64,000 bases of DNA from Candidatus Kaiserbacteria bacterium (GCA_963767115.1 CAVYCR010000012.1:16598-80597), one strand, 5' to 3'; numbered from the stretch's first letter, positions 3,257-25,530 are shown. Notes: generated from the sequence alone by a model not told the origin. Made by a program: numbers and translations.

Positions 3257-3270
3257 TATTGTAAGGTGGC

Positions 3271-8106: not shown

Positions 8107-8198
8107 AAGCGTATTGTGTACGGAGGAGGAATTTTTTGCAAAGACCATGATTTTGAAGTATAATACTGCGATAAGGCCTATGGCTGAATACATCCGTT

Positions 8199-9697: not shown

Positions 9698-9822
9698 TAT
9701 GGTGGGACACTCGCGCGGAATAAGTATTTTGGGGTCTTTGCATCGCGGCGGCGCGAAACAGAGTTCTTTTTCAGCAGAAAAAGAACGACCCCAAAATACC
9801 TATTCCGCGCGAGTGTCCATAT
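9697..9822. repeat. long inverted-repeat element filling the infB-rbfA spacer
   Basis: Arms 9697-9736 and 9787-9822 (ATATGG(TG)GGACACTCGCGCGGAATAAGTATTTTGGGGTC vs its complement, few mismatches). The core contains the hairpin TTCTTTTT-CAGCAG-AAAAAGAA. Confidence 0.8.
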
Positions 9823-9826
9823 AGAT

Positions 9827-10147
9827 ATGAGCCGTCGTACCAACCAATTTGGTGAGCAAATCGCGCATCTTGCTGCCGACTTTTTCGCACGCGAGAGCAA
9901 TGGCACGTCTTTGATTACGGTCACCCATGCCGATATTTCGCCCGATCTCCGCAATGTTAGGATATTCTTCTCCGTGATACCCGAGAGTTACGAAGAATCC
10001 GCGCTTCATTTCGCCCGGCGCAGCCGCACCGACTTCCGCGAATACCTTAAGCATCACGCCCGCATGCAATACCTCCCCAACGTCGATTTCGAAATCGATT
10101 ACGGCGAGAAAAACCGCCAGCGCGTGGATGAGCTTACCAGAAAATAA
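9827..10147 (+). CDS. rbfA: ribosome-binding factor A
   Basis: 106 aa directly after infB. RbfA-like sequence (…ITVTHADISPDLRNVRIFFSV…FEIDYGEKN…). Confidence 0.8.
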   Translation: MSRRTNQFGEQIAHLAADFFARESNGTSLITVTHADISPDLRNVRIFFSVIPESYEESALHFARRSRTDFREYLKHHARMQYLPNVDFEIDYGEKNRQRVDELTRK

Positions 10148-10264
10148 GAGCGGATTGTCTTTTGTAGACAACCCGCCTTGTTGGAATTCCTCAATCGACT
10201 GATTCGCTCAATACCGTTCTTGAATGTCCAATTTGAGGTACCCCGTGTCATTGGATGTTAGATG

Positions 10265-10609
10265 TTATACGATGGCGAGATTGGCGACACCTACTTTGTA
10301 AATGTCCGAAAACGGGGACGGTACAGCCCCCTTTAAAGACTCAGCTGATTGCGTGGCGCGCGACCACATCGTTTCGTATTCCTCATCAACTTCCTGATTC
10401 AGGATCGCGTCAACTTGCTGCGGTCGAAAGCCTTTTTGAAGTTTCTTGGCAGCCTCAAGGTATCCGATCACAGCTTCCTGAAGCTCAGCCTCGACAACGC
10501 GCGGGTCGTCCCCTTCGACGACGATGTTGAATTCCAAGGCAACGCCGAACCACGCATCATCTTCCCTGAAAATCATCCACCGATATGTCCCGGACGAGGT
10601 AGTGTTCAT
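10265..10609 (-). CDS. HicB-like / UPF0150-fold small protein (tentative)
   Basis: Start at ATG 10609 (MNTTSSGTYRWMIFREDDAWFGVALEFNIVVEGDDPRVVEAELQEAVIGYLE…). The 'W.a.…l.…v.G.…eeA.…l.eai…l' pattern is typical of HicB-type antitoxin N-domains. Confidence 0.4.
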   Translation of the reverse strand: MNTTSSGTYRWMIFREDDAWFGVALEFNIVVEGDDPRVVEAELQEAVIGYLEAAKKLQKGFRPQQVDAILNQEVDEEYETMWSRATQSAESLKGAVPSPFSDIYKVGVANLAIV

Positions 10610-10692
10610 AAAAGTCACTGTATCATTTGAAATACTGACTGACAAACGATGATCCCGCGATGAAAATCGGAGTGACACGTCTCTATAATAAA

Positions 10693-11259
10693 CTAACTAG
10701 AAGGTATTGAACGACCTTCGATATATCTATTTTCGATCTGGTTAACCAATTCTGCGTATGGAGTACTACGAATAATCTGAAACCCTTTCTCCTCAAACGA
10801 TTTAAAACTTTCAGGAAGAATGTTAATGAGTCGGACAGCGTAATCGCTTTCCGGGAAGTCAGAATGTGTCAGTTTTCCAAGTCTTAGTAAATACCATGCA
10901 GCTATAAATAAGGAGCAGGGGTATTTCTTACTCTTTACGATGTAATCAGTAATCTCCTCTCGCAATTTACCTTCTATCATTAGAGCGAGAACTTGATCGC
11001 ATTGCGGAATAAGTTGAGATTCTCTTATTACAACGCCAGGCTTATGTCCTTGCTCACTAAGCCAAACAATAAAGGAAACATAATCAAAAGACGGATCAGG
11101 AAACGAGTAGTCATCTACCATTACCACGAGAGACTCGTTTGATCCTCGCACATCATTCAATTGTTTGATAGAAAGTTCGTGTTCTTCACTAATCTTAGAA
11201 TTTGTATAGATATGAGCATATTCAATGGAAACATCTTTCATAGAATATTTTTGTTGCAA
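10693..11259 (-). CDS. hypothetical protein in an AT-rich island
   Basis: 188-aa ORF in an uninterrupted frame. Local GC is roughly 35-40% by hand count, against about 60% in neighbours. No family recognised. Confidence 0.5.
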   Translation of the reverse strand: MQQKYSMKDVSIEYAHIYTNSKISEEHELSIKQLNDVRGSNESLVVMVDDYSFPDPSFDYVSFIVWLSEQGHKPGVVIRESQLIPQCDQVLALMIEGKLREEITDYIVKSKKYPCSLFIAAWYLLRLGKLTHSDFPESDYAVRLINILPESFKSFEEKGFQIIRSTPYAELVNQIENRYIEGRSIPSS

Positions 11260-11272
11260 GTTTCCAACTGAT

Positions 11273-12034
11273 TCAAGATGTAGATATTGAATCTTGCTTG
11301 AGTGTCTTCAAGGCCTCTTCAACAGTAGTCATAAACTGCGCGGGGAAAATAATCGTCGAATTCTTCTCGGTGGCGATCTCGGCCATGGTCTGAAGCGTGC
11401 GCAGCTGAAGTGCTACAGGATGCGCAGTGATCACGTCGGCTGCTTCGCCGAGCTTGGTCGCCGCTTGGAACTCCCCTTCTGCCGCGACGATCTTGGCGCG
11501 GCGCTCGCGCTCAGCCTCCGCTTCTTTCGCCATCGCGCGCTGCATGTTGTCGGGCAGTGTGATGTCTTTGATCTCGACCGCGGTCACCTGTGTGCCCCAC
11601 GGCTCGGTGTGCGAATCGATCACGTCCTTGATCTGCTCGTTGATCGTCGAAGTGTCGGAGAGGAGCTGGTCGAGGCTGAAGCGGCCGACGACGTTGCGCA
11701 CCGTCGTCTGGCTGATCTGGTTGATCGCGCTCTGCACATTTTCGATAGCGATCACGGCCTTCTCCGGGTCCATGATGTGATAGTACGCGACCGCCGCGAT
11801 GTCGATCGAGACATTGTCTTTCGTAATGATCTTCTGCGAAGGGATCTGCATGGTAATGGTGCGGAGCGACACACGCGTCATTGTCTGAAAAAGCGGAAAG
11901 ACGAGCGTGAGCCCCGGCCCACGCACGCCGGTAAACTTGCCGAGGGAGAAGACAACGCCGCGCTCGTATTGGCGCAAAACCCTGATCGAACCGAGGATGT
12001 AGAGTGCGACGAGGCCGACGATGATCCATGTCAT
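11273..12034 (-). CDS. SPFH/band-7 (stomatin/prohibitin-like) membrane protein
   Basis: 253 aa. N-terminal TM helix then …[17 protein letters not shown]…GPGL…[15 protein letters not shown]…[12 protein letters not shown]…, the classic SPFH domain. Confidence 0.85.
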
Positions 12035-12078: not shown

Positions 12079-12289
12079 TTTTGAGGCCACAGTGGGAGTT
12101 CCACGGATAATTTCCTCGCCGTCGCTCGGAAATTTCCGTGGCCGAGCTCGCCGCCCGCGCTACTGCGCGGGACCCCGGCACCACAAGAGTACTTCCATTT
12201 TTCCAATCGGAATACCGCTAAGAAAAATTGGTCGCTGCGCTTTGCAACTCCCACCCTCAAAACTGCGTTTTGAGGCCACAGTGGGAGTT
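12079..12289 (-). repeat. 22-bp direct duplication of the tRNA-Cys 3' end bracketing a 167-bp insert made of tRNA-trailer repeat sequence
   Basis: TTTTGAGGCCACAGTGGGAGTT occurs at 12079-12100 and 12268-12289. The second copy is the 3' end of tRNA-Cys. The insert 12101-12267 carries a minus-oriented unit (…CGCGCAGTAGCGCGGGCGGCGAG-CTCGG-CCACGG…CCGTGG). Confidence 0.8.
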
Positions 12290-12345
12290 GCACCCACCCA
12301 ATAGCGGTTTTGCAGACCGCCGCGTTGCTACTTCGCCATATGGCC
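12273..12345 (-). tRNA. tRNA-Cys (anticodon GCA), non-canonical T-loop
   Basis: Reverse complement: acceptor GGCCATA/TGTGGCC (one G-U), anticodon stem GCGGT/ACCGC, loop CUGCAAA. The T-arm GTGGG-TGCAACT-CCCAC has G rather than U at position 55. Confidence 0.75.
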
Positions 12346-12454
12346 TATGTGCGTGTACTGTATCACAAAACAGCGGTATCATGCGCATGTCCGCCTCCGC
12401 CCCACGGCTTCGGCGTGACGAAGGCAGCCCTCGCTCAAGCTACGGCTTGCCGAA

Positions 12455-12536
12455 GCCGGGATGATGAAACTGGTAGACATAGGGGACTTAAAATCCCCAG
12501 ACGCAAGTCGTGTGGGTTCGATTCCCACTCCCGGCA
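12455..12536 (+). tRNA. tRNA-Leu (anticodon TAA)
   Basis: Acceptor GCCGGGA/TCCCGGC, anticodon stem GGGGA/TCCCC, loop CUUAAAA, long variable arm, T-loop TTCGATT. Confidence 0.85.
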
Positions 12537-12539
12537 CAC

Positions 12540-13190
12540 ATGAGATGGATTTTTCATAGGCGGTCTGTACAGACTGAGAAAAACGGCGCGCTCAGCGTGC
12601 AGACTATTCTCGGGACTACGCGGATCCTCAGCGGCTCTATCGAAAAGAGTGGTCCTGCTCTCACGAAGGTAATTGGGCTTGCTTTGAGAGAAGTCAGGGG
12701 TCGCATCCGACCAAACCCTTCTGTATTATTCATTGGTCTCGGAATGGGAGGTGGCACCTACGAGGTATATAAGCTCTTTGATGGAGCGTGCATCACCGCT
12801 ATCGAGTATGATTCCGATATGATTTCTTTTGCGAAAGAATTCAAGCCGTGGCAGCCGTTTCCCGAGCCCACAATACTCTACCGGGACGCGGCCGCGGTCC
12901 TCAAGGATCTGGCGCGCGGTGCTTTTGACCTCGTCGTAGTAGATATATTTGAACTGACCGAGGCCGACGATTGGAAATCGAGCCGACCCTCTCACCTGCT
13001 ACTCCAAGAAGAATTCATCGCGGATCTCAAGTGCGTGCTCAAACAAGACGGGTTGGTCGTCGTGAATGCTTTCCGCAATCCCGAGTACCTCGCGAATCTC
13101 AGTGATCATTTCCACACTGAGACCAGTCTCATCGGCGAAAATCATATCGGATATTTTTCTCACAAGCCTGAGACTGAATCATTACTATGA
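12540..13190 (+). CDS. spermidine-synthase-like SAM-dependent methyltransferase-fold protein
   Basis: Start at ATG 12540, just after the tRNA. VLFIGLGMGGGTYEV…ITAIEYDSDMISFAKEF…DLVVVD matches the Rossmann motif I/II layout of spermidine-synthase-like enzymes. Confidence 0.5.
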   Translation: MRWIFHRRSVQTEKNGALSVQTILGTTRILSGSIEKSGPALTKVIGLALREVRGRIRPNPSVLFIGLGMGGGTYEVYKLFDGACITAIEYDSDMISFAKEFKPWQPFPEPTILYRDAAAVLKDLARGAFDLVVVDIFELTEADDWKSSRPSHLLLQEEFIADLKCVLKQDGLVVVNAFRNPEYLANLSDHFHTETSLIGENHIGYFSHKPETESLL

Positions 13191-14095
13191 CAGACATCGA
13201 TGCTATGCCTGCAGAGTTACTGCCGCGTGAACTGTGGGGCCCGGCGGGATACCAGGAAGTCGAGATGTTTGCTCCATGGTACATGTTTGCCCGGCGTGTC
13301 GGACCGGAGAAAGAAATAGTGCGAGTCGGACTCTGGCCGGTCTGTAGCGAATGGCATTCGTCTCGGAAAGAACCTCTGAAGAATGCGGCGGGTCATCGAT
13401 GGCCAGGGATGCAGATTGTTTATTGGAACAAATTTGAAGACTCTCCAGCCGAGAAGGGGTGGTCGCGAGTGACGCAGTCTCCTCGCGCCAAGATAGGATA
13501 TGTAATACTCGAAGCAGAAAAGGCATATTATGCGTCATGGTCCCCGCGCATGCGGACTCATAGAAGAAACCAGTGGCTCAAACTTCTGGGCGAAGGAGTA
13601 TACTCGATTGAGACAATCGACAAAGCAAGTTTTGTCAGCGCCTTTAGTACGAGTGATTCGGTCAGGAAGTTTGACGCACGTCATCGGCGCGGATATCGCA
13701 AGCTCCTTGATACATGCACCGGAGATACGGAGTTTTATGTGATGCGACGTTCAGAAGACGGCTCGATAGCCGCAGGCAGGGCCGTCGCATACAACGTACG
13801 ACACAAGACCGCCGAAGCGCTCGTTTATTTTCATAATTTCCGTAAGACGGATCTGCACACGGCAGTAGGTCTGTGGGATCATCTCTATAGAGAAGCAAGC
13901 CAAAAAGGCATTCGCTATATCACTTTTGGAGAATCGTGGATGAAAGGAAGACCGGAGGCGTGGAAGGGATTCTCTGATTTCAAATCAAAGTTCGGTTTGC
14001 GGTACTTCTACCTGCCGAGTACTCTCTGCCGTATCGAGATCACCAACCCATTCCATTCCCTCTTCAAGAAATGTAATACTTATAAAAAAGATTGA
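13187..14095 (+). CDS. FemAB-like / GNAT-fold acyltransferase (tentative)
   Basis: 302 aa, overlapping the upstream gene by 4 nt. The C-terminal …GIRYITFGESW…WKGFSDFKSKFG… resembles the conserved FemAB/Acetyltransf_6 tail (G.…FK.…FG). Confidence 0.4.
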   Translation: MTDIDAMPAELLPRELWGPAGYQEVEMFAPWYMFARRVGPEKEIVRVGLWPVCSEWHSSRKEPLKNAAGHRWPGMQIVYWNKFEDSPAEKGWSRVTQSPRAKIGYVILEAEKAYYASWSPRMRTHRRNQWLKLLGEGVYSIETIDKASFVSAFSTSDSVRKFDARHRRGYRKLLDTCTGDTEFYVMRRSEDGSIAAGRAVAYNVRHKTAEALVYFHNFRKTDLHTAVGLWDHLYREASQKGIRYITFGESWMKGRPEAWKGFSDFKSKFGLRYFYLPSTLCRIEITNPFHSLFKKCNTYKKD

Positions 14096-15290
14096 CGAGT
14101 GCATCTGCTACAGTACGGACCACACGTTCGTCGGTCTCAGCATGTATATCGATGCCGGGTAAGTTGTTGATCTCGAGAACGGCAGAGCGTTGTGTGTACC
14201 ATGCACGTGATATGTCCTCCATAAGGACATCGACTCCGGCGCAATGTATGTCTATGTACTCAGCTATAGACTCAAATAAAGCCTTGTTTTCAGGATGCAT
14301 ATCATGAGTCTGATCGATCGTTTCGGCCCCCAATCGAAGGAAGGGGTATTTTTGCAGTTCAATCCTGTGCCCACGGGAAGGCACGTCTTCGTATTGCATT
14401 CCCGATTCTTTCAATACAGATAGCATCGTTTCATCTTGTGGTATTTTCCAAGTAAGCGAAACGTGGCTCTGAGATGCATGTCGAGAATCGTGAGCGTTCT
14501 TTGCTACGAGCAATTCGTGAATGCTCGATACGCCGTCCCCTACTACATGCGCGGTATCATAGCGCGCGCAGGCGATATATCTCTTGTCGATCAAAGTAAC
14601 ACGATACGCACGGGTCTCAGGTAAATATGTTTCTATGAGAAATCTCGGCTGATACTCGAGCGCCCGCGAGACCGCTTCTCTCAACTGCGCAACTGTCTTG
14701 ATAGCGAGCGTGACGTGGCGTCCGTACGTCCCGGCGTCAGGCTTCACTACGAGTGGAAAACCAAATTGCACTGGTACTTCTCTGAGAGCTCGTTCTTTTT
14801 GCCAGAACCAATAAGCCTTCCCAGCAGCAACAGGAAATCCACCCGTCGCCAAATACTTTTTTATCGTATGCTTGCGCGCGACAAGCGCCGCCTTCGGTCC
14901 GTCGAGAAATCCCGCCGTCGGGTAGGCTTCGCAATAATATATGCGGCCCTTCCAATACAACACGACATGTTCGGTATATCTATTTCTTATCATTAGTATT
15001 TTGCAACGTAAACCTCTCTCCCGAGCAGTCTGTACAAAAAAACGTGTACGTGGTTCCAGTCGATTCAAGTCTTGTTCATCGTTCAAATCTCCACAACGAA
15101 GCATGACGACAGCACGTATGAGAAATATCGCCACGGCATTTTCTAACCAATATGGGATATGCCGGCCTCGAGGTATACAATAACTAACCAGAGAATCGAT
15201 CCATGTGATGATATGAATCGAACGAGATGCTTCGCAATCAGAGCAAATGGTATCGGAGGCCATATACGCCATTATAAGCGTACCTCTCAA
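14064..15290 (-). CDS. ATP-grasp ligase (cyanophycin-synthetase-N/RimK-like)
   Basis: 408 aa. FGFPLVVKPDAGTYGRHV…RFLIETYLPETRAYRVTLID…HVVGDG…AGVDVLMEDI…AVLEINNLPGI is the typical ATP-grasp core. Confidence 0.65.
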   Translation of the reverse strand: MRGTLIMAYMASDTICSDCEASRSIHIITWIDSLVSYCIPRGRHIPYWLENAVAIFLIRAVVMLRCGDLNDEQDLNRLEPRTRFFVQTARERGLRCKILMIRNRYTEHVVLYWKGRIYYCEAYPTAGFLDGPKAALVARKHTIKKYLATGGFPVAAGKAYWFWQKERALREVPVQFGFPLVVKPDAGTYGRHVTLAIKTVAQLREAVSRALEYQPRFLIETYLPETRAYRVTLIDKRYIACARYDTAHVVGDGVSSIHELLVAKNAHDSRHASQSHVSLTWKIPQDETMLSVLKESGMQYEDVPSRGHRIELQKYPFLRLGAETIDQTHDMHPENKALFESIAEYIDIHCAGVDVLMEDISRAWYTQRSAVLEINNLPGIDIHAETDERVVRTVADALVNLFYKYYIS

Positions 15291-15344
15291 TCCAAGATAC
15301 TGATCCCCTTATCAAAGAAACAATTTCATGTAAAATGCCTCAAT

Positions 15345-15417
15345 CCGCCCGTAGCTCAGTTGGTAGAGCAGTCGCCTCTTAAGCGAACGGTCGTTGGTTC
15401 GAATCCAACCGGGCGGA
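15345..15417 (+). tRNA. tRNA-Lys (anticodon CTT)
   Basis: Acceptor CCGCCCG/CGGGCGG, D-loop AGCTCAGTTGGTAGAGC, anticodon loop CUCUUAA, T-arm GTTGG-TTCGAAT-CCAAC. Confidence 0.9.
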
Positions 15418-16360
15418 CACTATAGGACTTTGCGAGTAGATTTCCTCATAATCGCTTTGGTTCATGCGGTCTTTTTGAGGTTCGAGCGCTGCGTGAATAT
15501 CGCGTATCGCATCCGCGAGCCTTCGCATGGGCAAAAGCGTTTTCTCCACGTCAATGCCCACTATTCTGTCTTTCAGCGTGAGGTTCGAGCCGATCGCAAG
15601 GAAGATGCGGCGGCGCTTCTCCAAACTGCCATTCTCAAACTCCTCTTTGGCGCGGGTAACGAACTTAAATGCGCTTTCCATGTTGTTTGCCCAGCGCGTG
15701 ATCCGCGCATCCGTATCGTTCAAGAGTCCAAAGCGGCGTTTTTTCTCCTTGAGCCAGTGTTCCTTCTTTTCTCGGTACTCATCCTCGCTCAACTCCTCAC
15801 GAGCCCGCATATCGGAGTATCGGTCGAGCATCTGTACCGCCTCATCGTAGGATTTTTGCTGCGTGGTGCGTATACCCTCGCGCAGGTCGATCTCTTTTGC
15901 GTTTTCGTTCTCCAGCCACTTCATGCCCCATTGGTGGAAACTGTCGGGAAACTCGAACTTCATCAGCTTGTCGGTTATCTGCTCCATCAATTTCGACTCT
16001 TCGATTGAACCCTGCGTGCACGGCCCACTTTTTTTGGTGCAGTGATAGTAGATGTAGCGGTGGACGTTGCCGTTTTTCTGCGTCTTTATTTTCTCCTCGG
16101 CGGTGATCGCCAAGCCACACTCGCCGCATTTCATCGTGCCGATAAAGGCGAACGCGCGGCTTTTTGGCCGAGGTCGTCCGCGCCTGCCGAGCAATGCCTG
16201 CACTCTGTCGTACTCGTCTATCGTTATCATCGGCTCGTGTGCGCCCTGATACCAGTTGCCGCTTCCGCGCGGCCACTCAAACGAGCCGTAGTAAAACGGG
16301 TTGGTGAGCAGGTGGTAGATGTTGCTACGCGCCATCAGTCTCGACTTGCTCCTCTTGTGG
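15379..16360 (-). pseudogene. large serine recombinase, C-terminal two-thirds only (catalytic resolvase domain missing)
   Basis: …RLMARSNIYHLLTNPFYYGSFEWPRGSGNWYQGAHEPMITIDEYDRVQALL…GTMKCGECGLAITAEEK…YIYYHCTKK… gives the recombinase-domain end, zinc ribbon and coiled coil. Upstream of about 16360 the 539-aa ORF is read-through with no resolvase motifs. The last 13 codons are tRNA-Lys sequence. Confidence 0.75.
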
Positions 16361-16384
16361 GGTCGCATCCGGAGCCCCCATTCG

Positions 16385-16606
16385 GCCGCATTCCTCAGTC
16401 GCGACGAGAAAATGCCGTATGTGCGGCTCGCCGCGCGGAAGATCGACGCGCTCAAACTGCTTCTGATGGTTCTCTGGGAAACGAAATCACTCGAGCCGAA
16501 GAAATATGCCGCGCTCTCGGAAAAGATGGACGAAATCGGCAAGATGCTCGGCGGATGGGGCGGACAGCTTAAAAAACAAAACTCCCCCGCCAAAAAAGAT
16601 AATTGA
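16385..16606 (+). pseudogene. four-helix-bundle protein (Avd / 23S-IVS-protein family) C-terminal fragment
   Basis: …RLAARKIDALKLLLMVLWETKSLEPKKYAALSEKMDEIGKMLGGWGGQLKK matches the C-terminal half of CPR-type four-helix-bundle proteins. The N-terminal half is absent, and the fragment lies head-to-head with the truncated recombinase. Confidence 0.5.
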
Positions 16607-16628
16607 CGGAGGAGAAACGGAGAGAGTA

Positions 16629-16763
16629 GCGGAGACGGAACACGATGCGATTGTCGAGCTTCCAGCGATCGTCGGGATTTGTCCAATCGTTGTTGAGCCA
16701 CAACTTGCCGTCGTCGTTGCGCTTCACATCGAAGACGTTCGGGTTGCCATCGGAGTCGGGATT
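16629..16763 (-). repeat. DGR template repeat (TR)
   Basis: 135-nt repeat of 17107-17241. It holds 34 adenines (minus strand), 17 of which are substituted in the other copy. No other position differs. In the VR frame it translates to an Asn/Asp/Lys-rich peptide. Confidence 0.85.
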
Positions 16764-17061
16764 GTGCGCCGCGCCATCTATGCCACTGCCCGTCGAATAC
16801 TCTCAGGGCTGAATCTAATTCGGGATCTAAAATCCACCAGCGCAACGCACCAAGTATCTTCGTTTTTTGAAGTTTCTGCATACACCACGCCGTTTCAAAC
16901 CGTAATCGGAAACGTTCCGGATGTATGGATACTGGTTTCGGCAGCGGGAAACCGTAATCGCCCGCATATTCGCCTACTACCGCTCCTAAGTGTATCAAAA
17001 AGAATGAGCCCTCGGCGCGAGATGCGTCGAGGACTCGAATGCAAGGGCAAAGCCCAAAGGA

Positions 17062-17790
17062 TCAAGTGCAGTGCAAGGGTAAAACAGCCGAAGCCGAGGA
17101 TACCTTGCGGAGACGGAACACGACGCGATAGTCGAGCCCCCAGCGACCGTCGGGACTCGTCCAACCGTCGTAGAGCCACAACCTGCCGTCGTCGTTGCGC
17201 TCCACAGCGAAGACGTACGGGTGGCCAACGGAGTCGGGAATCCGTTCCATCGCAATCCACAGGACTTCGCCTTTCGGCTGATCCTTGTATTGGATTGCGA
17301 GATGCGGGCCGGTCTCAGCGGGACAGAGATCGAGGACGTGGCCGTCGAGGTTCGCTTCGCTCCACGCCGTGAGGCGCTTCACGTCGAAAAGCTCGGTGGT
17401 CGTCGGGTTCTCGGTGAAGCCGAGATCCGCCGGGCACAGGTCGATCAGCGTGATCATCTCCGGCTCGGCGAGCGTGGTGAACAGCTTGTGGTTCATCATG
17501 CTTTTGGCGTAGCCGCTGATTTCGCGGGTTGCCGTTCCGAGCTGCACGATGAGATCGTCCTTCGACACGCCGCCGATCAAGATCGGCATCGTGCGGATGA
17601 AACGACCGCGCAAGCCACTCGCAAATGGGGTGAGCTTGCCTTCGGTCATGCCCTGCAGAGTAGCGATGACACGCTCAGGATCGAGCGCGGTATCGTTCTG
17701 TAGGAAAACCTGTCGCTGCAACTCAGCGATTCTCTTTGAGATCCGGTGAGCTTGGTCGCGGTCAACAACGAACCTTTCGGTCGTCGCCAT
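17062..17790 (-). CDS. DGR target (variable) protein, no signal peptide
   Basis: Start at ATG 17790 (MATTERF…, RBS GGAGG). The C-terminal roughly 45 aa are encoded by the VR. The …NRIVFRLR ending is reminiscent of the conserved end of C-type-lectin-fold VRs; the fold assignment is an inference. Confidence 0.7.
   Translation of the reverse strand: MATTERFVVDRDQAHRISKRIAELQRQVFLQNDTALDPERVIATLQGMTEGKLTPFASGLRGRFIRTMPILIGGVSKDDLIVQLGTATREISGYAKSMMNHKLFTTLAEPEMITLIDLCPADLGFTENPTTTELFDVKRLTAWSEANLDGHVLDLCPAETGPHLAIQYKDQPKGEVLWIAMERIPDSVGHPYVFAVERNDDGRLWLYDGWTSPDGRWGLDYRVVFRLRKVSSASAVLPLHCT
17107..17241 (-). repeat. DGR variable repeat (VR) at the 3' end of CDS 17062..17790
   Basis: In frame with the target CDS (…IPDSVGHPYVFAVERNDDGRLWLYDGWTSPDGRWGLDYRVVFRLR). 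It differs from the TR only at TR adenines (A>G x10, A>T x5, A>C x2). Confidence 0.85.
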
Positions 17791-17953
17791 AACAACCTCC
17801 ACTATGATTGCTGCTGCGAAATCGCACTTAGGCATCGCGTTTGCTTTGCCGCAGCGGAAAGAAGCTCTAACAGAGCCGCTTTCAGCTGTGGCAAATGTCT
17901 AAACCGCTGTGTGAAAGATCGAATCACGATTATACATTTGTGCGGACTCCGTG

Positions 17954-18301
17954 TCAACTTGCTGCGGTAATGTGTCCGGCCTCAAGCATCCCCTTAAACC
18001 TTCGACTTCGATATTCCAGTCCAAGGCACTTCCTGCAGCCGATTGCACCCGTGAACGGATGCACAAAAAGCGTTCCGGCGCGGTGAGCGCCGAGCGGACA
18101 CTTGAACCAATATCGAGTACCGCCGAATTGTGTCTTTGAGGGCATCAGCTCGATTGTTAGATTGTAGAGCGCGATCTCTGTCGCGATCAGTTCCTTTTTC
18201 AGCCTCGCTTTTGCTTTGCGGAGATACGCAGAGATCGAGACGCGCTGACAGTCCTCCACCAAAATTGGTGTTCCTGAATCGTATGGGCGTGATACTTTCA
18301 C
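17954..18301 (-). CDS. hypothetical protein with putative zinc ribbon
   Basis: 115 aa. …RYWFKCPLG…GCRKCLGLEY gives a C-x-n-C…C-x2-C arrangement. The start overlaps the stop of the upstream gene by 4 nt. Lies inside the tRNA-Lys island. Confidence 0.4.
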   Translation of the reverse strand: MKVSRPYDSGTPILVEDCQRVSISAYLRKAKARLKKELIATEIALYNLTIELMPSKTQFGGTRYWFKCPLGAHRAGTLFVHPFTGAIGCRKCLGLEYRSRRFKGMLEAGHITAAS

Positions 18302-18924
18302 GGTTTTGCAGGTGTCGCGTTGATTTGCTGGTTGCCCGCCACAAAAGCGTTCTTGGCTCTTATATTCACCTCGAGCTGCGGTTGCTTGATCTGCCTCAAC
18401 ATTGCGAACGACGATAAGAACTGCCTGTGCGCTCGGTCAATCTGTTTGCTCATCACTGCAAGGAGGTGGTTCTGCTCAGAGGAAGTGGAATCTCCGGGTA
18501 CATAACTGTTGTACCGCTTTGAACTATCGATATATCGAACAAACGAGCCTGCGATGGTTTCAGCAAGCATTTTCTCCATGTGAGTTGAGCAGTTGTTTTC
18601 CCGTATGATCTGGGCACAGAGCTCTTTTGCCATACCGCGATATTTTTCATTAAAGCTGTCCATCAGAGCAACATGAGTCTCGACCTCAAGCGCGAACATT
18701 GCAGATAGCGCCGGTTCCTGAAGCTCCCTTTGCTCCTCATCTTTATCACGCCTACCTTTGGATTTCGGTCTTGAAAAGATCTCGCTACAGCGCTCAAGCG
18801 CGTCGCCAAGATCTCCTTTTACTTTTGAGTTTTGTAGCAGTAGCGCTTTTGCGTCTTCTGGCGTGTAGCGTTTTACGAGAGCCTTCGATTTCTGTATTGG
18901 CGTGCTTGGGCTGGGCATCTGCAT
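18298..18924 (-). CDS. hypothetical protein (island-encoded)
   Basis: 208-aa ORF, lower GC than the core genome. No recognisable family. Confidence 0.4.
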   Translation of the reverse strand: MQMPSPSTPIQKSKALVKRYTPEDAKALLLQNSKVKGDLGDALERCSEIFSRPKSKGRRDKDEEQRELQEPALSAMFALEVETHVALMDSFNEKYRGMAKELCAQIIRENNCSTHMEKMLAETIAGSFVRYIDSSKRYNSYVPGDSTSSEQNHLLAVMSKQIDRAHRQFLSSFAMLRQIKQPQLEVNIRAKNAFVAGNQQINATPAKP

Positions 18925-19034
18925 AAAGTAAATCTGACGTTGTGCTGCTCATGCAACGATATCAAAAGCCGTGCAGTAAAACGGGCTCGGCTCTCCGGCG
19001 GCCTCTATAAAAATGGTTCGAGCGTCGTACAACA

Positions 19035-19230
19035 GGGCGGACAAGTACACAACAACGTTGCGGGGCAACGTTTTGTGACTTGTCCGGGCCGCAGCTCGTT
19101 TCGCGAGCTCGCGAAACGAGCGAGGCGGGGTCGCGGAAACTCTTTTGAGGCGACAAAAGAATTATCCGTGACGACATGAACTCTCCAAGGCGGGCCCGCG
19201 CAAATTTTCAGTAGAAAATTATGCGTGGGG
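19035..19230 (+). repeat. tRNA-trailer structured repeat, array B (three units: 19035-19090, 19122-19172, 19187-19230)
   Basis: Unit 1: GGCGGACAAGT…ACTTGTCC. Unit 2: GAGGCGGGGTCGCGG…CCGTGAC. Unit 3: AAGGCGGGCCCGCG-caaattttCAGTAGaaaattatg-CGTGGGG. Outer stems differ in sequence but stay complementary. Confidence 0.7.
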
Positions 19231-19263
19231 ACAAGATATCAAGTATACTATTCGTAAGCTGCG

Positions 19264-22200
19264 ATGAAGGAGCGCCACATCGATAATCAAAAAGGATCAC
19301 TGCGCGCGTTGCTTACGACGACCTTTCTGGCGTCGCTTCTCTTTACCACTATGACAGGCACAGCATTCGCAAGTGCTCCGCCAAGCTGGTTGCAAGCGCA
19401 CCCGCCGTTCCATCTAAGAATCAGAAGAATAAGTGCTAATCAAACAATAAGTCCAAACGCTCTGACGCCACAAGGTCTCACCCCGGCGCAGATAAAAAGC
19501 ATCTACAATCTTCCCTCGACGGGAGGGTCTGGAACGATCGCACTCATCGAGGCGTATGACAACCCTAATGCCGAAAGCGATTTAGGGACCTTTGATACGC
19601 AATTCAGTCTCGCGCCGTGTACCACCGCAAACACCTGCTTCACAAAACATCAGATGTCGGTGAGCACATCGACCAACAGCGGCTGGACCGTCGAATCGTC
19701 GCTCGACGTAGAATGGGCGCATGCGATCGCTCCCAACGCGAAGATTCTTCTCGTGGAAGCACAGAGCTCGAGTGATAACGATCTTATCGCCGCGGTCGAT
19801 TATGCGCGCAACCAGCCGGGCGTCGTTGCGATATCGATGAGCTGGGGCAGTGCGGAATTTTCGGGCGAATCATCCGACGATTACCACTTTGTCTCGCCGT
19901 ACGGAGCCGTATTCTTTGCTTCCACCGGTGACACAGGGAGCGGTGTAGCGTGGCCGGCCGTTTCCACAAACGTGGTCGCGGTCGGCGGAACCACACTTAA
20001 TTTCACTGGTAATACCTTTACCTCAGAGACAGCGTGGAGTGGGAGCGGCGGAGGCTTGAGCAAATATGTGAACGAACCCAGCTATCAATTACTGTATGGC
20101 GTGCCGCAAGCAAACGGCTTTCGGGCAATTCCCGACGTCTCCTACGACGCAGATCCCAACTCCGGTTTTTCTATCTACGACAGCACGGGCTATCAAGGCC
20201 AGTCGGGCTGGCTCGTTGTCGGTGGGACAAGTGCCGGCGCGCCTCAATGGGCTGCAATTGATGCTCTCGCGAGTACCACGAATAATACAAACCTGTATGC
20301 TGTTGCTTCGAGCAGCGGCAGCTATGCTTCAGACTTTCGGGACATTACAAGCGGGACCAACGGGAGTTGCGGATTCGATTGTACCGCACAGGTGGGTTAT
20401 GATTACGTAACCGGGCTCGGCAGCCCTCTCACCGATATCTTCAACACTCCGCCGACATATGCCCATGTCACACCGGCAACAGGCGCAGTGAACGTCTCGA
20501 TAGACACAACATCATATGCGGGGGGCACGGCCACGTGGACCACTCTTACCGGACCGGTGATTCAGGAAACGTCCGCTGATCAAATCACTTCGGGCGTTTA
20601 TACGCTCACATTGCCTTCAGGCTGGCAGTTCAATACGACACACAATGTAAACATAACAACAGGAGGCGGCACCTCTTTGAGCGTGGCGTCGACGACAATA
20701 ACGCCAAATGCCAGCAGTCTTTCCTTTGACGTGACGGCGGTATCAGCAACCGGAACCGCGACACTCACATTGAGTGGCATTCAGGTACAGCCGACCGGAA
20801 CCAGTTCGCCGTCGATCGGCACGATCACGTATTCCGGCCCCACGATTGCCGGAGCCGACAACACCACCTCGTTCGGTACACTTTCAACGACGGCAGGCGC
20901 CTCCACGACGGTGAATGTGGAAACTGTGGCAAACGGCACTGGTACTGTAGTCCAAGCGCAGAATCTTGCCTCAGGAAGCAGTACTACGGTCTATACAGTT
21001 ACCAGGGACCAATTCGGAAATTTTGTCGCAAATGCTCCCGCCGTCTGGTCTCTCGTATCCAAAACTGGCGGCGTTGCAAACGGAGACCTCTCCGCAAGTA
21101 GCAGCCAAGAAAGCGCAACTCTGACGGGAACCTTGGACGGCAGCTGCAAGATCCATGCCTCCATTGGCGGTCTTGCCAGTGTTGATTCGGGCTTGATCAC
21201 GGTCGTTCCCGGTACAATAACCAGCCTTTCGCTTTCTCCACAGAGTGCGACCACCACGACAGGCACTACGGTAACGTACTCCGTACAGGGATTTGACACG
21301 CAAGGCAACGGCGCAACGACCACCGCGAGCAGCACCTTTTCTATATCATCGGGTGCAGGCGGGTCCTTCAGCGGGTCCACATACGCTCCGCAGAACACGG
21401 GGAATTGGATTGTTTCCGCTTTGTATGGGAGCCTCACGGGTAGCTCGACCCTCACTGTCATACCGCAAGTTGCACAGAAGCTCATCTTCTCCACTGAGCC
21501 CACAAGCACTGCCGCGAGTTCGAGCCTGACCACAACAGTCAGTACTGAAGATTCATTGGGCAATCTAGATACAAATTACTCCGGCATCATAACGCTCGAC
21601 GTTTATAACAACCCGGGACTTTTACAAGGAGTGACATCCACTCCCGCCGTCGCCGGCGTGGCAGCATTTAATGCCATCACGATCAATCAGCCCGGAAGCG
21701 GTTATGTTTTGGACGCGACTGCCGCCGGATTAACGAGTACCACATCGAGCGCATTCGATATGACCGCTGCGCCATCGGTGCTTCCCGCGGCAGGTACCTA
21801 CACTTCCAATCAAAGCGTCGTGCTTTCCGCTGCGCCCGGATCAAACGGCTTGTACTATACAGTTGACGGATCCACTCCCGATTGCACCGTTCCCACAGGC
21901 ATAAGCGGAACAAGCAGCGTATCGATTTCCGTTGCCTCAACTGAGACAATTTCCGCCCGCTCTTGCTATGCAGGCGCAGTTCAATCGAGCGTAGGATCCT
22001 TCGCGTACACATTGCAATGCACTGTGCCTTCGGTAAGTAACGGTTCCGTCGCGAGTTATCCCGCATGCACTATTACCTGCAATGTGGGTTACTCGCTTTC
22101 GGGAAATTCGTGCGTCGCTGTTGGCGGCGGTAGTGGCGGGGGCGGGGGTGGAGGCGCGCCCATCAGTGCCTCCGCAATTTCTTTAGCGTCGACCTCAACA

Positions 22201-22848
22201 ACTGTTGCTACGAATACCGTGCAGGTTGTATCGAACACCGCGGCGGCTCTCGCAAGCACATCAAACACCGTGCGCGTTCCCGCCGCCACGAGTCTCGTAT
22301 CGACCAACGATGGGGTCGCACTGCCTAGCTTTTCGCGCAATCTCTGGAAAGGCATGACCGACCCGCTCGTTCGTTCACTACAGGAGTTGCTTAATCACCT
22401 CGGCTTTACTATCGCGCAGAGCGGCCCGGGCTCTCCGGGCGATGAAAGCGATTATTTTGGGGCAGCCACGCAGCGCGCACTGATCGCATTCCAGAGTGCC
22501 CACGCTATCACGCCCGCGAGCGGCTATCTCGGGCCGGCCACGCGAGCACTCATTAGCACGATGACGAGCAGTACAACGCCGCCGATCCAGACAACCCAAG
22601 TAGCGAGCAACACGCCAAGCACGCCGACGCCGTTCACCCGCAATCTCCAGCTCGGCTCTCAAGGCAGCGATGTCGCTTCGCTCCAGCAATTGCTGATTAC
22701 CGCGGGATATTCGCTTCCTGCTGGTGCGACCGGCTATTTCGGCACGCAGACACGCGAAGCGCTCATGCAATATCAGGGCGCTCACGGCATCACACCCGCC
22801 AGCGGATACTTCGGACCTGCGACACGCGCTTTCGTCGCAGGACAATAA
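19264..22848 (+). CDS. secreted multidomain S53 (sedolisin-like) peptidase with Ig-like repeats and two C-terminal peptidoglycan-binding domains
   Basis: 1194 aa with a signal peptide. The S53 core shows (…ESSLDVEWAHAIAPNAKILLVEA…STGDTGSG…GGTSAGAPQWAA…). Long T/S-rich beta-repeat region, poly-Gly linker, and two PG_binding_1-like repeats (…YFGAATQRALIAFQ…; …YFGTQTREALMQYQ…). Confidence 0.8.
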   Translation: MKERHIDNQKGSLRALLTTTFLASLLFTTMTGTAFASAPPSWLQAHPPFHLRIRRISANQTISPNALTPQGLTPAQIKSIYNLPSTGGSGTIALIEAYDNPNAESDLGTFDTQFSLAPCTTANTCFTKHQMSVSTSTNSGWTVESSLDVEWAHAIAPNAKILLVEAQSSSDNDLIAAVDYARNQPGVVAISMSWGSAEFSGESSDDYHFVSPYGAVFFASTGDTGSGVAWPAVSTNVVAVGGTTLNFTGNTFTSETAWSGSGGGLSKYVNEPSYQLLYGVPQANGFRAIPDVSYDADPNSGFSIYDSTGYQGQSGWLVVGGTSAGAPQWAAIDALASTTNNTNLYAVASSSGSYASDFRDITSGTNGSCGFDCTAQVGYDYVTGLGSPLTDIFNTPPTYAHVTPATGAVNVSIDTTSYAGGTATWTTLTGPVIQETSADQITSGVYTLTLPSGWQFNTTHNVNITTGGGTSLSVASTTITPNASSLSFDVTAVSATGTATLTLSGIQVQPTGTSSPSIGTITYSGPTIAGADNTTSFGTLSTTAGASTTVNVETVANGTGTVVQAQNLASGSSTTVYTVTRDQFGNFVANAPAVWSLVSKTGGVANGDLSASSSQESATLTGTLDGSCKIHASIGGLASVDSGLITVVPGTITSLSLSPQSATTTTGTTVTYSVQGFDTQGNGATTTASSTFSISSGAGGSFSGSTYAPQNTGNWIVSALYGSLTGSSTLTVIPQVAQKLIFSTEPTSTAASSSLTTTVSTEDSLGNLDTNYSGIITLDVYNNPGLLQGVTSTPAVAGVAAFNAITINQPGSGYVLDATAAGLTSTTSSAFDMTAAPSVLPAAGTYTSNQSVVLSAAPGSNGLYYTVDGSTPDCTVPTGISGTSSVSISVASTETISARSCYAGAVQSSVGSFAYTLQCTVPSVSNGSVASYPACTITCNVGYSLSGNSCVAVGGGSGGGGGGGAPISASAISLASTSTTVATNTVQVVSNTAAALASTSNTVRVPAATSLVSTNDGVALPSFSRNLWKGMTDPLVRSLQELLNHLGFTIAQSGPGSPGDESDYFGAATQRALIAFQSAHAITPASGYLGPATRALISTMTSSTTPPIQTTQVASNTPSTPTPFTRNLQLGSQGSDVASLQQLLITAGYSLPAGATGYFGTQTREALMQYQGAHGITPASGYFGPATRAFVAGQ

Positions 22849-22891
22849 TATCGCGAACATTGGGCATGTGCCGCTCCGCTGTTTTTAGGCT

Positions 22892-24694
22892 TTAGTGGCT
22901 GATATTGATCTGCACTGCCTGCTGCGCAATCATGTTGCCGATGCCGTCTTTGGCGACGAAGTTCACCGTATAAGGCCCGCTCCCGCGCCATGTCCACTGC
23001 GAGAGATCGACGTCGGACTCCATATGCGGGCTGTCTGTAGATGAGGGCTGCATCTGGTTGAGCGCTCCGCTATCGACCTGCCAGTACATGGTGTATTGCG
23101 AAGTAGGAAGAGTATTCACGACAGCCTTAAATGGCTGCACGCCCGAGACACTCACGCCATTGGTCGGCCACCACACATGTATTATTTGTCCGCCCTGACT
23201 ACTCGTCGATCCCCCGCTCGATCCAGTCGAAGCGCTTACAGCGATAGTTGCTGCACTGTTATTCCAAGTATACAGTGTCGACCAATCGCTACTAAAGACC
23301 CCGATCTTGATCGTATAGGTGCCGCTGCTACTGGGTGTCCAGGAAACCGCGTACTGTAGATTTTGGCCCGATGAGAAATTCTGCGATCCGAATGTGTGCT
23401 GCAACACCTGCGCACCCGATGAGTTATAGACTTCAATATCGACATTGGCGTTTGAGATTGCACTGCCCTGGTCGGTGATCGAGGCCGTGAGATTCACGCT
23501 CCCGCCAGTAGAAGCCGAAGATGGATTCGCGCCGCCAGCGACAGCAAATGCCGCGTTGCTGGTAGTTCCTCCATTAGACCCTCCGCCATTTGAAGCCGGC
23601 GGCGACAGGAAGTATTGCTGTATCGTCTGCTCCGCCGGTTTGTTGGCTATCAAATAATCGGTATCGCCGCTTCCTCCGGAAGAAGGATTGCTGTTGTCGT
23701 ACCAGATGCCGAGCCCTTGCATATATGAATAGTTGTTCCAGTATTGCAGGAGCGCCGTATAATCGTTCACCTGTTCCTGCGGGTCGTAGCTGCCGCCCAT
23801 GCTCGAATTCCACGGCTCGAGATGGGCGTTTGTGACGCTTCGGTAGCCAACTTCGGAGAACAGGATCGGCTTGCCCCACTGACTCTCAAGCGGCTCTATC
23901 GTCGAGCTGTTGATCGTACTCCAGTCGTTCTCCAAGTTTGCCACAGAATCATCGCCGTCGAGGTTGTAATACGCCGAGATGCCGATATAGTCGAGGTCGC
24001 TCCAGAAACCGATCTGCGGCGGCTCGTCTACGGCACTGCTGCCGCCCCAATTGGCGTCGTAGAAGAGCTTGCCGTGGTAGACGCTTCGCACCGCGCTGAT
24101 CATACTCTCCCATGCCGAGGTATTGCCCGGATTGACCGTTGCCGAAGACATGTCGATGAGCTCGGTGCCGATGCAGTATTCCTCAACGCCGTATAGTTCT
24201 GCCATCTGCGCATATTTCATCAAAGCGGTCTTGTAATTGCTAAACCAAGTCGTGCGGTCGCTCGGGTTTATAGTGGCACGCCAAGCACCGTCTTCGGGGT
24301 CGAGGTGGAGCTTGAGTATCACGCCCATCCCCTGGGCATGCGCGTATTGGATCGCTGAGATAAGCGAGGAGTCAGTCGGCGTGTTGCCGCCCGGAGCGAC
24401 ATCGGTCGAGTAGATGTTGGACTGGTAGTACGGGATCACGAGCGTGACGTAGTTGAAGCCGAGCGATTTCGCATGCGTCACTACTTGTTCGAAGCCGCTA
24501 CTGCCGAAATCGCTCGGCGAATCGGGATAGATACTGATACTGCGCTGCCATGAAGCTATGTCGGCGTTTGCAAATCCCGCAGGCAGCAGAATCATCGCGG
24601 TAAGCGTCGCGATGCATGCTCGCGCGGCTAATGCGCGATAGCCGAATATTTGGAAGCTGCTTCTAGTAGGACTCTTTTGCGCAGCCGCTTTCAT
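22892..24694 (-). CDS. secreted glycoside hydrolase (TIM-barrel, clan GH-A-like) with C-terminal Ig-like domains
   Basis: 600 aa with a signal peptide. …GFNYVTLVIPYY…GMGVILKLHLDPEDG…EEYCIGTELI…PILFSEVGYRS… suggests NE…E catalytic glutamates on a (beta/alpha)8 barrel. Two C-terminal beta-sandwich-like repeats. Confidence 0.65.
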   Translation of the reverse strand: MKAAAQKSPTRSSFQIFGYRALAARACIATLTAMILLPAGFANADIASWQRSISIYPDSPSDFGSSGFEQVVTHAKSLGFNYVTLVIPYYQSNIYSTDVAPGGNTPTDSSLISAIQYAHAQGMGVILKLHLDPEDGAWRATINPSDRTTWFSNYKTALMKYAQMAELYGVEEYCIGTELIDMSSATVNPGNTSAWESMISAVRSVYHGKLFYDANWGGSSAVDEPPQIGFWSDLDYIGISAYYNLDGDDSVANLENDWSTINSSTIEPLESQWGKPILFSEVGYRSVTNAHLEPWNSSMGGSYDPQEQVNDYTALLQYWNNYSYMQGLGIWYDNSNPSSGGSGDTDYLIANKPAEQTIQQYFLSPPASNGGGSNGGTTSNAAFAVAGGANPSSASTGGSVNLTASITDQGSAISNANVDIEVYNSSGAQVLQHTFGSQNFSSGQNLQYAVSWTPSSSGTYTIKIGVFSSDWSTLYTWNNSAATIAVSASTGSSGGSTSSQGGQIIHVWWPTNGVSVSGVQPFKAVVNTLPTSQYTMYWQVDSGALNQMQPSSTDSPHMESDVDLSQWTWRGSGPYTVNFVAKDGIGNMIAQQAVQINISH

Positions 24695-24761
24695 CTGCTT
24701 ATTGTATGCGCAGATGAGATAAGTTTATGTGAAGTCTTTTAGACTTTGTCCTAAAAACCTC

Positions 24762-25205
24762 TTAGTAGTAATACGACGATGAGGGGCTGTACCCGTAGTT
24801 GTATCCGTAAGAATAGTTGTACGATGGCATCATGTAGCTGTACGTCATCGGATAACTAGAGCTGTATCCGGTGTTGTATGTGTACGACGGGGAGTACGAA
24901 TATTGTTGTTGCGGATAATAGCTGGAGTAGGAATACGGCACATATCCGCCACAGGGCGTGCTTGAGTAGAAACCGCCAGTGCAAACGAAACCGCCGTTAT
25001 TGTCTGACTGACCATAATTGGGCGAATAATAATAGCCAGTATTCTGCATATATTGGTACTGCTGATACTGCGGTTGGTATTGCGACTGATACTGATACGT
25101 CGGCTGATACTGATACTGGTAGTAACTTCCTGCTGAGGCGGTCAACGGCATTATGGTAAGGACTGCTCCTGCGACTACTGATGCGATTGCTGTTATATTC
25201 TTCAT
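24762..25205 (-). CDS. secreted Tyr/Gln/Ser-rich low-complexity protein
   Basis: 147 aa. Signal peptide MKNITAIASVVAGAVLTIMPLTASA, then YYQYQYQPTYQYQSQYQPQYQQYQY…YSYGYNYGYSPSSSYYY; about one residue in three is Tyr. Confidence 0.55.
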   Translation of the reverse strand: MKNITAIASVVAGAVLTIMPLTASAGSYYQYQYQPTYQYQSQYQPQYQQYQYMQNTGYYYSPNYGQSDNNGGFVCTGGFYSSTPCGGYVPYSYSSYYPQQQYSYSPSYTYNTGYSSSYPMTYSYMMPSYNYSYGYNYGYSPSSSYYY

Positions 25206-25278
25206 AAGTACATACTATAGAAAGTCTCCCGAATAATCAATGAAATTTGAGCTACATAATGCTACTATACTCTCGTAA

Positions 25279-25360
25279 GGGCAGATGGCGGAATTGGTAT
25301 ACGCGCCAGCCTTAGGAGCTGGTCCCGCAAGGGTTGGGAGTTCGAGTCTCCCTCTGCCCA
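25279..25360 (+). tRNA. tRNA-Leu (anticodon TAG)
   Basis: Acceptor GGGCAGA/TCTGCCC, anticodon stem CCAGC/GCTGG, loop CUUAGGA, long variable arm, T-loop TTCGAGT. Confidence 0.85.
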
Positions 25361-25488
25361 CCGAAGCGAAGCGAAGAGTGGTCAGAGAGCACAGTGCGGG
25401 GCACTGTGCGTGGAGACTCGAAAGCCGGACCCACCTTGGGCGGGGAGGCGGGGTCGCGCAAAATTTCAGCAGAAATTTATGCGTGACC
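25361..25488 (+). repeat. tRNA-trailer structured repeat, array C (unit 25445-25488)
   Basis: GCACAGTGC-ggg-GCACTGTGC hairpin, GGAGACTCGAAAGCC module, then GAGGCGGGGTCGCGC-aaaatttCAGCAGaaatttat-GCGTGACC. Confidence 0.7.
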
Positions 25489-25530
25489 GAGCTCCCTCTA
25501 CTTATAGATAGTATGAAGGAAAGCTAAAAA

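Follow-up and report, generated by a model that had tools for sequence, protein, structure and literature searches.

The window analysed here is a 64,000-nucleotide stretch of DNA from a Candidatus Kaiserbacteria bacterium. Between positions 15345 and 19234 it contains a tRNA-Lys(CTT) gene, a fragment of a large serine recombinase (LSR) gene that runs antisense into this tRNA gene, the remainder of a diversity-generating retroelement (DGR) with its template repeat (TR) and variable repeat (VR), two small genes and a tRNA trailer. The region from 15411 to 19043 (~3.6 kb) is bounded by two identical 9-bp cores (GGGCGGACA), located at 15411-15419 (attL) and 19035-19043 (attR), and is very probably a non-autonomous remnant of a small site-specific integrative element that was driven by an LSR of a family common in Patescibacteria (candidate phyla radiation, CPR). 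The features of the locus are as follows.

15345-15418, plus strand: host tRNA-Lys(CTT), intact, assigned as the B arm of attL; top-scoring tRNA in the window with 69.5 bits (ARAGORN, Rfam), 100% identical to the tRNA-Lys of the syntenic relative L092
15379-16383, minus strand: LSR fragment, equivalent to residues 214-545 of the homologue P0001 (Pfam, tblastn)
15411-15419, no strand: attL core GGGCGGACA, consisting of the acceptor-stem 3' strand, the discriminator base and 2 further nucleotides; identical to 19035-19043
16382-16606, plus strand: C-terminal ~75 codons of avd, with the first ~60 codons deleted (bAvd-like profile; Avd of L010)
16383/16384, no strand: deletion junction between the recombinase gene and avd (homology ends; also in L099)
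16629-16761, minus strand: TR of the DGR (TR/VR comparison)
17062-17790, minus strand: DGR target gene, 242 aa, intact, with the VR (17107-17239) encoding its C-terminus (TR/VR comparison, homologues)
17954-18301, minus strand: 115-aa CxxC...CxxC zinc-ribbon gene (682 cluster representatives)
18298-18924, minus strand: 208-aa gene (4 homologues besides itself)
18949-19034, minus strand: detached last 28 codons and stop codon of the recombinase gene, assigned as the P arm of attP, with GGTTCGA 20 nt from the core (in-frame join)
19035-19043, no strand: attR core GGGCGGACA (match to the tRNA end; core comparison)
19044-19234, plus strand: B' arm, assigned as the original tRNA-Lys trailer, with a hairpin at 19044-19095 and repeat units at 19080-19182 and 19187-19234 (similarity to L095; nhmmer)

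In this region and in the trailers, only tRNAs were matched by Rfam.

Fragment of a large serine recombinase gene

The minus-strand open reading frame (ORF) of the recombinase terminates at 15379, with its stop codon inside the anticodon loop of the tRNA, and its final ~12-13 codons (SARLDSNQRPFA) are antisense tRNA sequence. The segment from 15420 to ~15465, which is recombinase coding sequence, doubles as the putative P' arm of attL. The fragment matches the Pfam families Recombinase (profile positions 35-101 of 102) and Zn_ribbon_recom, as well as the PHROG integrase family phrog_95 (E=3e-30), and still includes the zinc ribbon, coiled coil and C-terminal helices, preceded by the last part of the recombinase domain. 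The closest full-length relative is P0001 (555 aa), of which residues 214-545 are aligned to the fragment by tblastn with 88% identity and residues 1-213 have no counterpart. The Resolvase-type catalytic domain, which is present in full-length relatives such as P0001, is not detected by Pfam in the window copy. Thus, the Pfam result and the alignment with P0001 both agree with the first-pass annotation, made from the sequence alone, in which a truncated LSR gene antisense to tRNA-Lys was proposed to have lost its catalytic domain. The absence of this domain indicates that the window copy is a remnant and not a functional member of the LSR family. The domain layout was checked on the AlphaFold model of P0009, a 69%-identical homologue; two long antiparallel helices (residues 352-399 and 405-456) are located within the zinc-ribbon region of this model. 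When the minus-strand ORF is extended mechanically, it spans 539 aa (15379-16998) and remains open for 205 codons past the end of the recombinase homology, antisense through avd and across the TR. This 205-codon extension is without homologues and looks non-coding, and a gene caller could over-extend the fragment.

Ends of the element and empty integration sites

The far end of the element was placed by the first-pass annotation at 19030-19044, where the 3' end of tRNA-Lys is matched at 13 of 15 positions. This match is present, and it is the sole other match in the window to the tRNA 3' end with two or fewer mismatches. It does mark the end of the element, but only the 9-bp core GGGCGGACA within it is derived from recombination, and its flank is the tail of the recombinase gene, as described below. 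Taken alone, the 13/15 match is modestly significant (0.09 expected by chance), and the gapped local score of 24 does not stand out in this window, as would be the case if the locus were native and the match fortuitous. However, this explanation is hardly credible, because it is contradicted by the empty sites, by the conserved element ends and by the in-frame recombinase tail.

The ends of the element are conserved in L001, the contig of P0001, which carries an intact element adjoining tRNA-Ile(TAT). Window positions 15331-16384 are 85% identical to L001, and window positions 18923-19094 match the L001 element at its far end with 79.5% identity, with no homology to L001 between these two stretches of the window. 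This result indicates that the two elements have the same ends and different cargo. The far end of the L001 element was located only by homology to the window, a far-end tRNA repeat not being found by a simple direct-repeat search of L001. The concern that the match to the tRNA end might not be conserved at element boundaries is answered by these ends in L001 and by the core, the same or an equivalent one being located at both ends of three related elements.

To find empty sites, metagenomes were scanned for the predicted junction, in which the tRNA 3' end is followed by A, and seven loci were returned. L092 is syntenic with window positions 603-10137 and contains the same tRNA cluster; directly 3' of its tRNA-Lys(CTT), a hairpin and a trailer unit are found without a recombinase gene. 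In L095, a tRNA-Lys(TTT) gene with the same 3' end is directly followed by sequence with 92.5% identity to 19030-19095 and 91.8% identity to 19188-19236. A scan of a genome collection with the flanking ATP-grasp protein, aimed at the empty site, found no relative. Since tRNA-Lys is directly followed by the trailer in both L092 and L095, the element of the window sits between tRNA-Lys and its original trailer. The repeat array that follows the 19.03-kb match is also of the kind that follows four other tRNAs, because trailer repeat units were located by nhmmer after tRNA-Tyr, tRNA-Cys, tRNA-Leu(TAG) and tRNA-Val (two units) and again from 19080 onwards. Thus, an element inserted between tRNA-Lys and the 19.03-kb match, an empty site in relatives, a displaced trailer and a repeat array of this kind, all of them expected from the first-pass annotation, are borne out by L001, L092 and L095 and by the positions of the repeat units.

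Attachment site within the recombinase gene

When the recombinase ORF is joined across the two cores, it stays in frame. The joined tail is ...IYSQSPIVSA/LLYDARTIFIEAAGEPSPFYCTAFDIVA in the window and ...SPIVSA/LLYDARTIFIEATGEPSPLYATAFDTV in L001, each followed by a stop codon (the slash marks the join). These tails resemble those of un-split homologues, namely ...EARTVFIEAA...SPRY... of P0005, ...SALLYDVRTAF... of P0031 and ...SALWDDVRT... of P0009; the contig of P0009 (L009) contains an uninterrupted attP with no tRNA nearby. The recombinases of L098 and L097, which are distant members of the family with 39% and 37% identity, adjoin tRNA-Lys(TTT) and tRNA-Gln(TTG) respectively, and a ...(Y/D)DVRT... 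tail is restored in each of these contigs through one copy of a 7-9-bp core located upstream. The tail is therefore restored in frame in four elements, which sit in tRNA-Lys(CTT) (window), tRNA-Ile (L001), tRNA-Lys(TTT) (L098) and tRNA-Gln (L097). Restoration of a native tail by an in-frame join indicates that attP sits inside the 3' end of the recombinase gene, in the coding region of the gene itself. Among the 120 best homologues of the recombinase, 61 have antisense-tRNA tails, 27 have native tails and 21 end within ~5 residues of the crossover. Judged from these comparisons, the tRNA-encoded tail of the recombinase is a family-wide consequence of the position of attP inside the gene, and not a quirk of one locus.

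The cores shared by attL and attR are 7-10 bp long across the four elements. The motif GGTTC(G/T)A starts 14-15 nt before the core in the tRNA (B) arm, where it is the T-loop, and 19-20 nt before the core in the element (P) arm, exactly 5 bp farther, in four of the four elements. This offset agrees with the rule published for LSRs, according to which the motif for the zinc-ribbon domain (ZD) is 5 bp nearer the centre in attB than in attP (PMC3783163). The T-loop motif GGTTCGA probably serves the recombinase as its ZD binding motif in attB, with the same motif located 5 bp farther out in attP.

The segment 19013-19034 resembles the T-arm of a tRNA, and a gapped alignment can be made between the tRNA 3' half and 19013-19043 (TGGTTCGA ... 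CAAC.GGGCGGACA). Such an alignment would be expected if the locus were a classical tRNA island of a tyrosine integrase, in which 19013-19044 is the decayed and displaced 3' half of tRNA-Lys and the present 3' end of the tRNA was supplied by the element. However, a tyrosine integrase is not detected, Phage_integrase being unmatched in Pfam and PHROG searches. In addition, the tRNA-Ile, tRNA-Lys(TTT) and tRNA-Gln elements and the un-integrated gene of L009 all have this pseudo-T-arm, including its 5 extra bases. Because it is the same in elements sitting in different tRNAs, the pseudo-T-arm belongs to the element and not to the host. It reads in frame as the recombinase tail, and the repeat is limited to the 9-bp core. 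A tyrosine-integrase island is therefore very unlikely. A displaced tRNA half at the far end was rejected, the arm being element-borne recombinase coding sequence; the resemblance of 19013-19034 to a T-arm is real, but the segment belongs to the P arm, formed by the 28 final codons that were detached from the recombinase gene, and is not a displaced tRNA fragment.

Integration by the LSR thus accounts for both ends of the element in the following way. As the comparison with related elements shows, the recombinase exchanged strands within the 9-bp core GGGCGGACA that is common to attP and the 3' end of tRNA-Lys(CTT). After integration, the tRNA was still host-encoded and intact. The recombinase gene, without its last 28 codons, came to lie next to the tRNA, and its ORF now enters the tRNA in antisense and terminates within the anticodon loop. 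The 28 codons themselves were moved to the far end, beside the displaced tRNA trailer.

The tail peptide D(V/A)RT is conserved, and it corresponds to the DNA motif GGTTCGA read in antisense. The tails otherwise vary and are 14-31 aa long, and the tail of P0009 is modelled by AlphaFold with low confidence (pLDDT 61 falling to 30). These results suggest that the conservation of the tail is probably imposed on DNA rather than on protein. Exchange of the tail may accordingly be neutral. Alternatively, the exchange could be functional, with the native tail being used by the free form and the tRNA-encoded tail by the integrated form, in such a way that directionality or stability is set, and truncated remnants could persist as DNA-binding proteins on the tRNA att site. 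By sequence length, ~13 of the 120 best homologues are N-terminally truncated remnants, not all of them checked individually. This functional role is a speculative possibility and on balance doubtful; if it is true, the self-splitting integrases of archaea would have a bacterial counterpart among the serine recombinases.

DGR cassette and the deletion

The TR, the DGR target gene, an N-terminally truncated four-helix-bundle gene and two unrecognisable genes had been placed between the recombinase fragment and the far end by the first-pass annotation, and their positions are upheld by profile and alignment data. TR and VR are 133 nt each and differ at 16 positions. On the coding (minus) strand, the TR has an adenine at all 16, and 15 of these differences are in codon positions 1-2. 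Adenines account for 32 of the 133 TR bases, and the chance that all 16 differences fall on adenines is ~1e-10. The downstream sequences of TR and VR diverge directly after GTTCCGTCTCCGC. The plus-strand ORF that abuts the recombinase fragment matches a bAvd-like profile at positions 64-103 of 107 with 29 bits, which is below the 40-bit cut-off, and shares 66% identity with the full-length Avd of L010 (135 aa) over residues ~56-132 of the latter, the C-terminal ~55% being present. No reverse transcriptase (RT) motif is found in the six frames of the 64-kb window, and tblastn with the RT of L011 gives a best E of 7.

In intact DGR relatives (L011, L012 and L015), target/VR is followed by TR, by avd on the opposite strand and then by RT, and the remainder in the window has the same order. 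Window positions 16383-17832 are homologous to the DGR module of L010, the target of which is 75% identical to that of the window. The target family occurs at 257 places in Patescibacteria genomes, and a DGR RT adjoins it in at least 31 of 80 fetched loci. In the sequence examined, no TR, RT or recombinase was found in the vicinity of P0123, P0128 and P0124, which are close homologues of the target, and an intact element with a DGR was therefore not obtained from them. In L010, the closest related DGR, an IS481-type transposase (1974-3170) interrupts the RT gene after ~85 codons, so that RT has been lost a second time, independently, in this DGR clade.

Both small genes represent real families. 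The 115-aa gene has 682 cluster representatives at E<=1e-3 and no Pfam, PHROG or PDB assignment. The 208-aa gene has only 4 homologues besides itself, and no family match to it was found in Pfam, PHROG and PDB sequence searches.

Homology to the L001 recombinase ends at 16384 and homology to the L010 DGR ends at 16383. The two homologies therefore abut at 16383/16384 and define one exact junction, at which recombinase residue 214 is fused to about residue 60 of Avd. A single deletion through two divergent 5' ends had been proposed, and it is consistent with this junction, which is exact and on both sides of which the truncated genes miss their 5' ends. The extent of the deletion is larger than proposed: the two 5' ends are lost, but by comparison with intact relatives the whole RT of the DGR was removed as well. 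The missing parts are those next in line in the intact DGR relatives, suggesting that the lost interval held the avd N-terminus, RT and recombinase residues 1-213. The cargo of the element would have been a complete DGR in the order typical of the clade, target/VR, TR, antisense avd and RT, together with the two small genes. One deletion, probably a single event of ~2 kb or more, would then have removed recombinase residues 1-213, RT and the first ~60 codons of avd. The remnant is presumably unable to excise itself or to diversify its target. Its two att sites are intact, so that mobilisation in trans by a related recombinase of full length would be possible in principle.

As the window is part of a metagenome-assembled contig, and as repeats (tRNAs and trailer units) flank the block, the junction between the recombinase gene and avd, or even the whole block, could be a mis-join of reads. 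This explanation is contradicted by an independent Logan assembly, L099 (run ERR11630394), which covers 15373-19083 with 3 mismatches over 3711 nt and no gaps and contains the same junction. A chimera is thus highly improbable, and the assembly error that had been named as an alternative to the deletion is not supported. None of the 3 mismatches of L099 is in the VR, and this identity gives no sign of ongoing diversification. At 16680, within the TR, L099 has C and the window has T; a TR adenine is replaced here by the VR base, the VR being identical in both assemblies. The ends of L099 (15373 and 19083) lie 38 and 40 nt outside the att cores, and could reflect the repeats (tRNA and trailer) or a branch of the assembly graph that arises from occupied and empty alleles.

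Several points weigh against the proposed history of the locus. The L092 contig ends ~370 nt past the tRNA, and the synteny of the empty site is therefore seen on the left only. The crossover is placed to the 9-bp core and not to a dinucleotide, no recombination directionality factor was recognised, and the integration activity of the recombinase family is predicted from sequence comparison only. The search for RT covers 64 kb, and an RT encoded elsewhere in the genome might act in trans. The first-pass annotation had advised a search for intact copies of the recombinase elsewhere, and a full-length relative, P0001, is present in the L001 element, but no intact element with both this recombinase and a DGR was found. 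Of the 80 fetched loci of the target family, only 2 have an LSR match, both distant in sequence and 3-8 kb away. This last result indicates that a DGR is unusual cargo for this type of element and could be a secondary acquisition.

If the DGR is not the original cargo, a fragment of a chromosomal DGR would have been joined to the integrated element by illegitimate recombination, and 16383/16384 would be one of the two acquisition junctions. In agreement with this, the DGR module occurs in many other genomic contexts without this recombinase, and none of the fetched DGR loci or recombinase elements contains a homologue of the 115-aa or the 208-aa gene. However, secondary acquisition takes two events, whereas one deletion suffices. 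Moreover, the missing 5' ends of both truncated genes face the same gap, as a simple deletion predicts, and the parts missing from the DGR, the avd N-terminus and then RT, are exactly those that come next in intact relatives. Secondary acquisition is therefore unlikely, and a single deletion in an element that carried the DGR as its cargo is preferred.

Recombinase family and related elements

The recombinase family has more than 1250 database relatives, which are mostly 530-557 aa long; the few that are named by their sources are mostly from Patescibacteria. A further member is located in tRNA-Lys(CTT) of L007. The element of L097 extends from 2249 to 11590, that of L098 from 24 to 11585 and that of L001 from ~4890 to 11613. 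Delimited in this way, the L098 and L097 elements are ~11.5 kb and ~9.3 kb long respectively, and contain methylase, restriction, SMC-like and other cargo genes. The cargo of the L097, L098 and L001 elements comprises restriction-modification genes, Vsr, an SMC-like ATPase, DUF6339/DUF8370/DUF8371 and AAA_25 replication-type genes, suggesting that defence cargo is common in this element family. A scan of viral contigs in IMG/VR with the recombinase alignment gave one distant match, indicating that the family is not notably viral. In a limited full-text literature search, no description of this Patescibacteria recombinase family was found; the family and its mode of integration are apparently undescribed.

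Trailer units and the tRNA cluster

The trailer units are ~70-100 nt long, lie just 3' of tRNA genes and always have the orientation of the tRNA. In the window they are located at 1583-1686, 12102-12174 (minus strand), 19080-19182, 19187-19234, 25416-25495, 57713-57788 and 57827-57928, and they are also present in L001, L092, L095 and L096. The 3' hairpin of the unit has a consensus stem of 15 bp with compensatory changes at 11 pairs, and no Rfam match to the unit was found. After each tRNA, the hairpin that comes first pairs with the 3' terminus of that same tRNA. The last 18 nt of tRNA-Cys (AACTCCCACTGTGGCCTC) are present at 12083-12100 and 12272-12289 (minus strand), as an exact repeat 172 nt downstream that brackets a trailer unit. 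This repeat resembles either a miniature insertion or a tRNA end that has been duplicated.

The tRNAs Leu(TAG), Cys, Leu(TAA) and Lys(CTT) are tightly clustered in L093, and in L092 those for Cys and Leu(TAA) are adjacent, with Lys(CTT) 1.3 kb further on. At 12272-25362 of the window, the same tRNAs are spread apart by inserted blocks and tRNA-Cys is inverted. One inserted block (12538-15344) has a GC content of 0.49, compared with 0.545 for the window, and contains three genes including one for an ATP-grasp protein; a second inserted block is located at 19264-25278. The tRNA cluster looks like an insertion hotspot.

Discussion

As a single locus, the remnant is a fairly ordinary decayed island, and its value lies in a coherent variant of serine-recombinase integration that is apparently undescribed. 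The analysis provides base-exact boundaries and a history for 3.6 kb that, without it, would be annotated as five hypothetical genes with no relation to one another, and suggests that the DGR at this locus is frozen and not active. It also exposes a large recombinase family that targets the 3' ends of several different tRNA genes, a behaviour not known for serine integrases. Because the attachment sites can be read from the C-terminus of the gene itself, attP/attB pairs can be predicted for many recombinases with no need for experiments, which would be useful for integrase prospecting. In addition, a route is identified by which defence genes and DGRs may be moved among the small genomes of uncultivated bacteria.

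The recombinase family resembles the known LSR modules (Listeria A118/LI, phiC31 and Bxb1) in the order of its domains, namely a catalytic domain, a recombinase domain and a zinc ribbon with an embedded coiled coil, and also in its short att sites, which have a small common core and a presumed ZD motif 5 bp closer in attB (PMC3783163). It differs from them in that it targets tRNA genes at their 3' end and in that attP is located in the 3' coding region of the recombinase gene, so that integration swaps the last 14-31 codons for antisense tRNA. According to a survey published in 2020, tRNA targeting had not previously been reported for serine integrases, and 14 of 297 predicted cases were awaiting proof (PMC7192596).

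An attP inside the integrase gene, a tRNA target and a split gene are also characteristic of the SSV-type ('suicidal') integrases of archaeal viruses and plasmids (PMC8371274). These enzymes are tyrosine recombinases that are described as exclusively archaeal, and their split separates functional parts of the enzyme (PMC8371274). In contrast, the enzyme considered here is a bacterial serine recombinase, from which only a short tail of 14-31 codons is detached.

The tycheposons of Prochlorococcus are small cargo elements with an integrase at a tRNA end, often a replication gene, and defence or niche cargo (bioRxiv 10.1101/2020.12.28.424599). At tycheposons, as at tRNA-seeded islands in general, degenerate remnants build up beside the tRNA (bioRxiv 10.1101/2020.12.28.424599). 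The related elements described here likewise contain AAA_25 genes, restriction-modification genes and other cargo. However, tycheposons use tyrosine recombinases and leave partial tRNA copies behind, whereas the present elements use a serine recombinase and leave only a 7-10-bp core.

Finally, the cassette of the window is similar to other Patescibacteria DGRs in the C-terminal VR of its target, in the adenine-specific TR differences, in its bAvd-like gene and in the gene order of intact relatives. It differs from them in being without RT and the N-terminus of Avd, and its setting in a recombinase element is unusual for this DGR clade.

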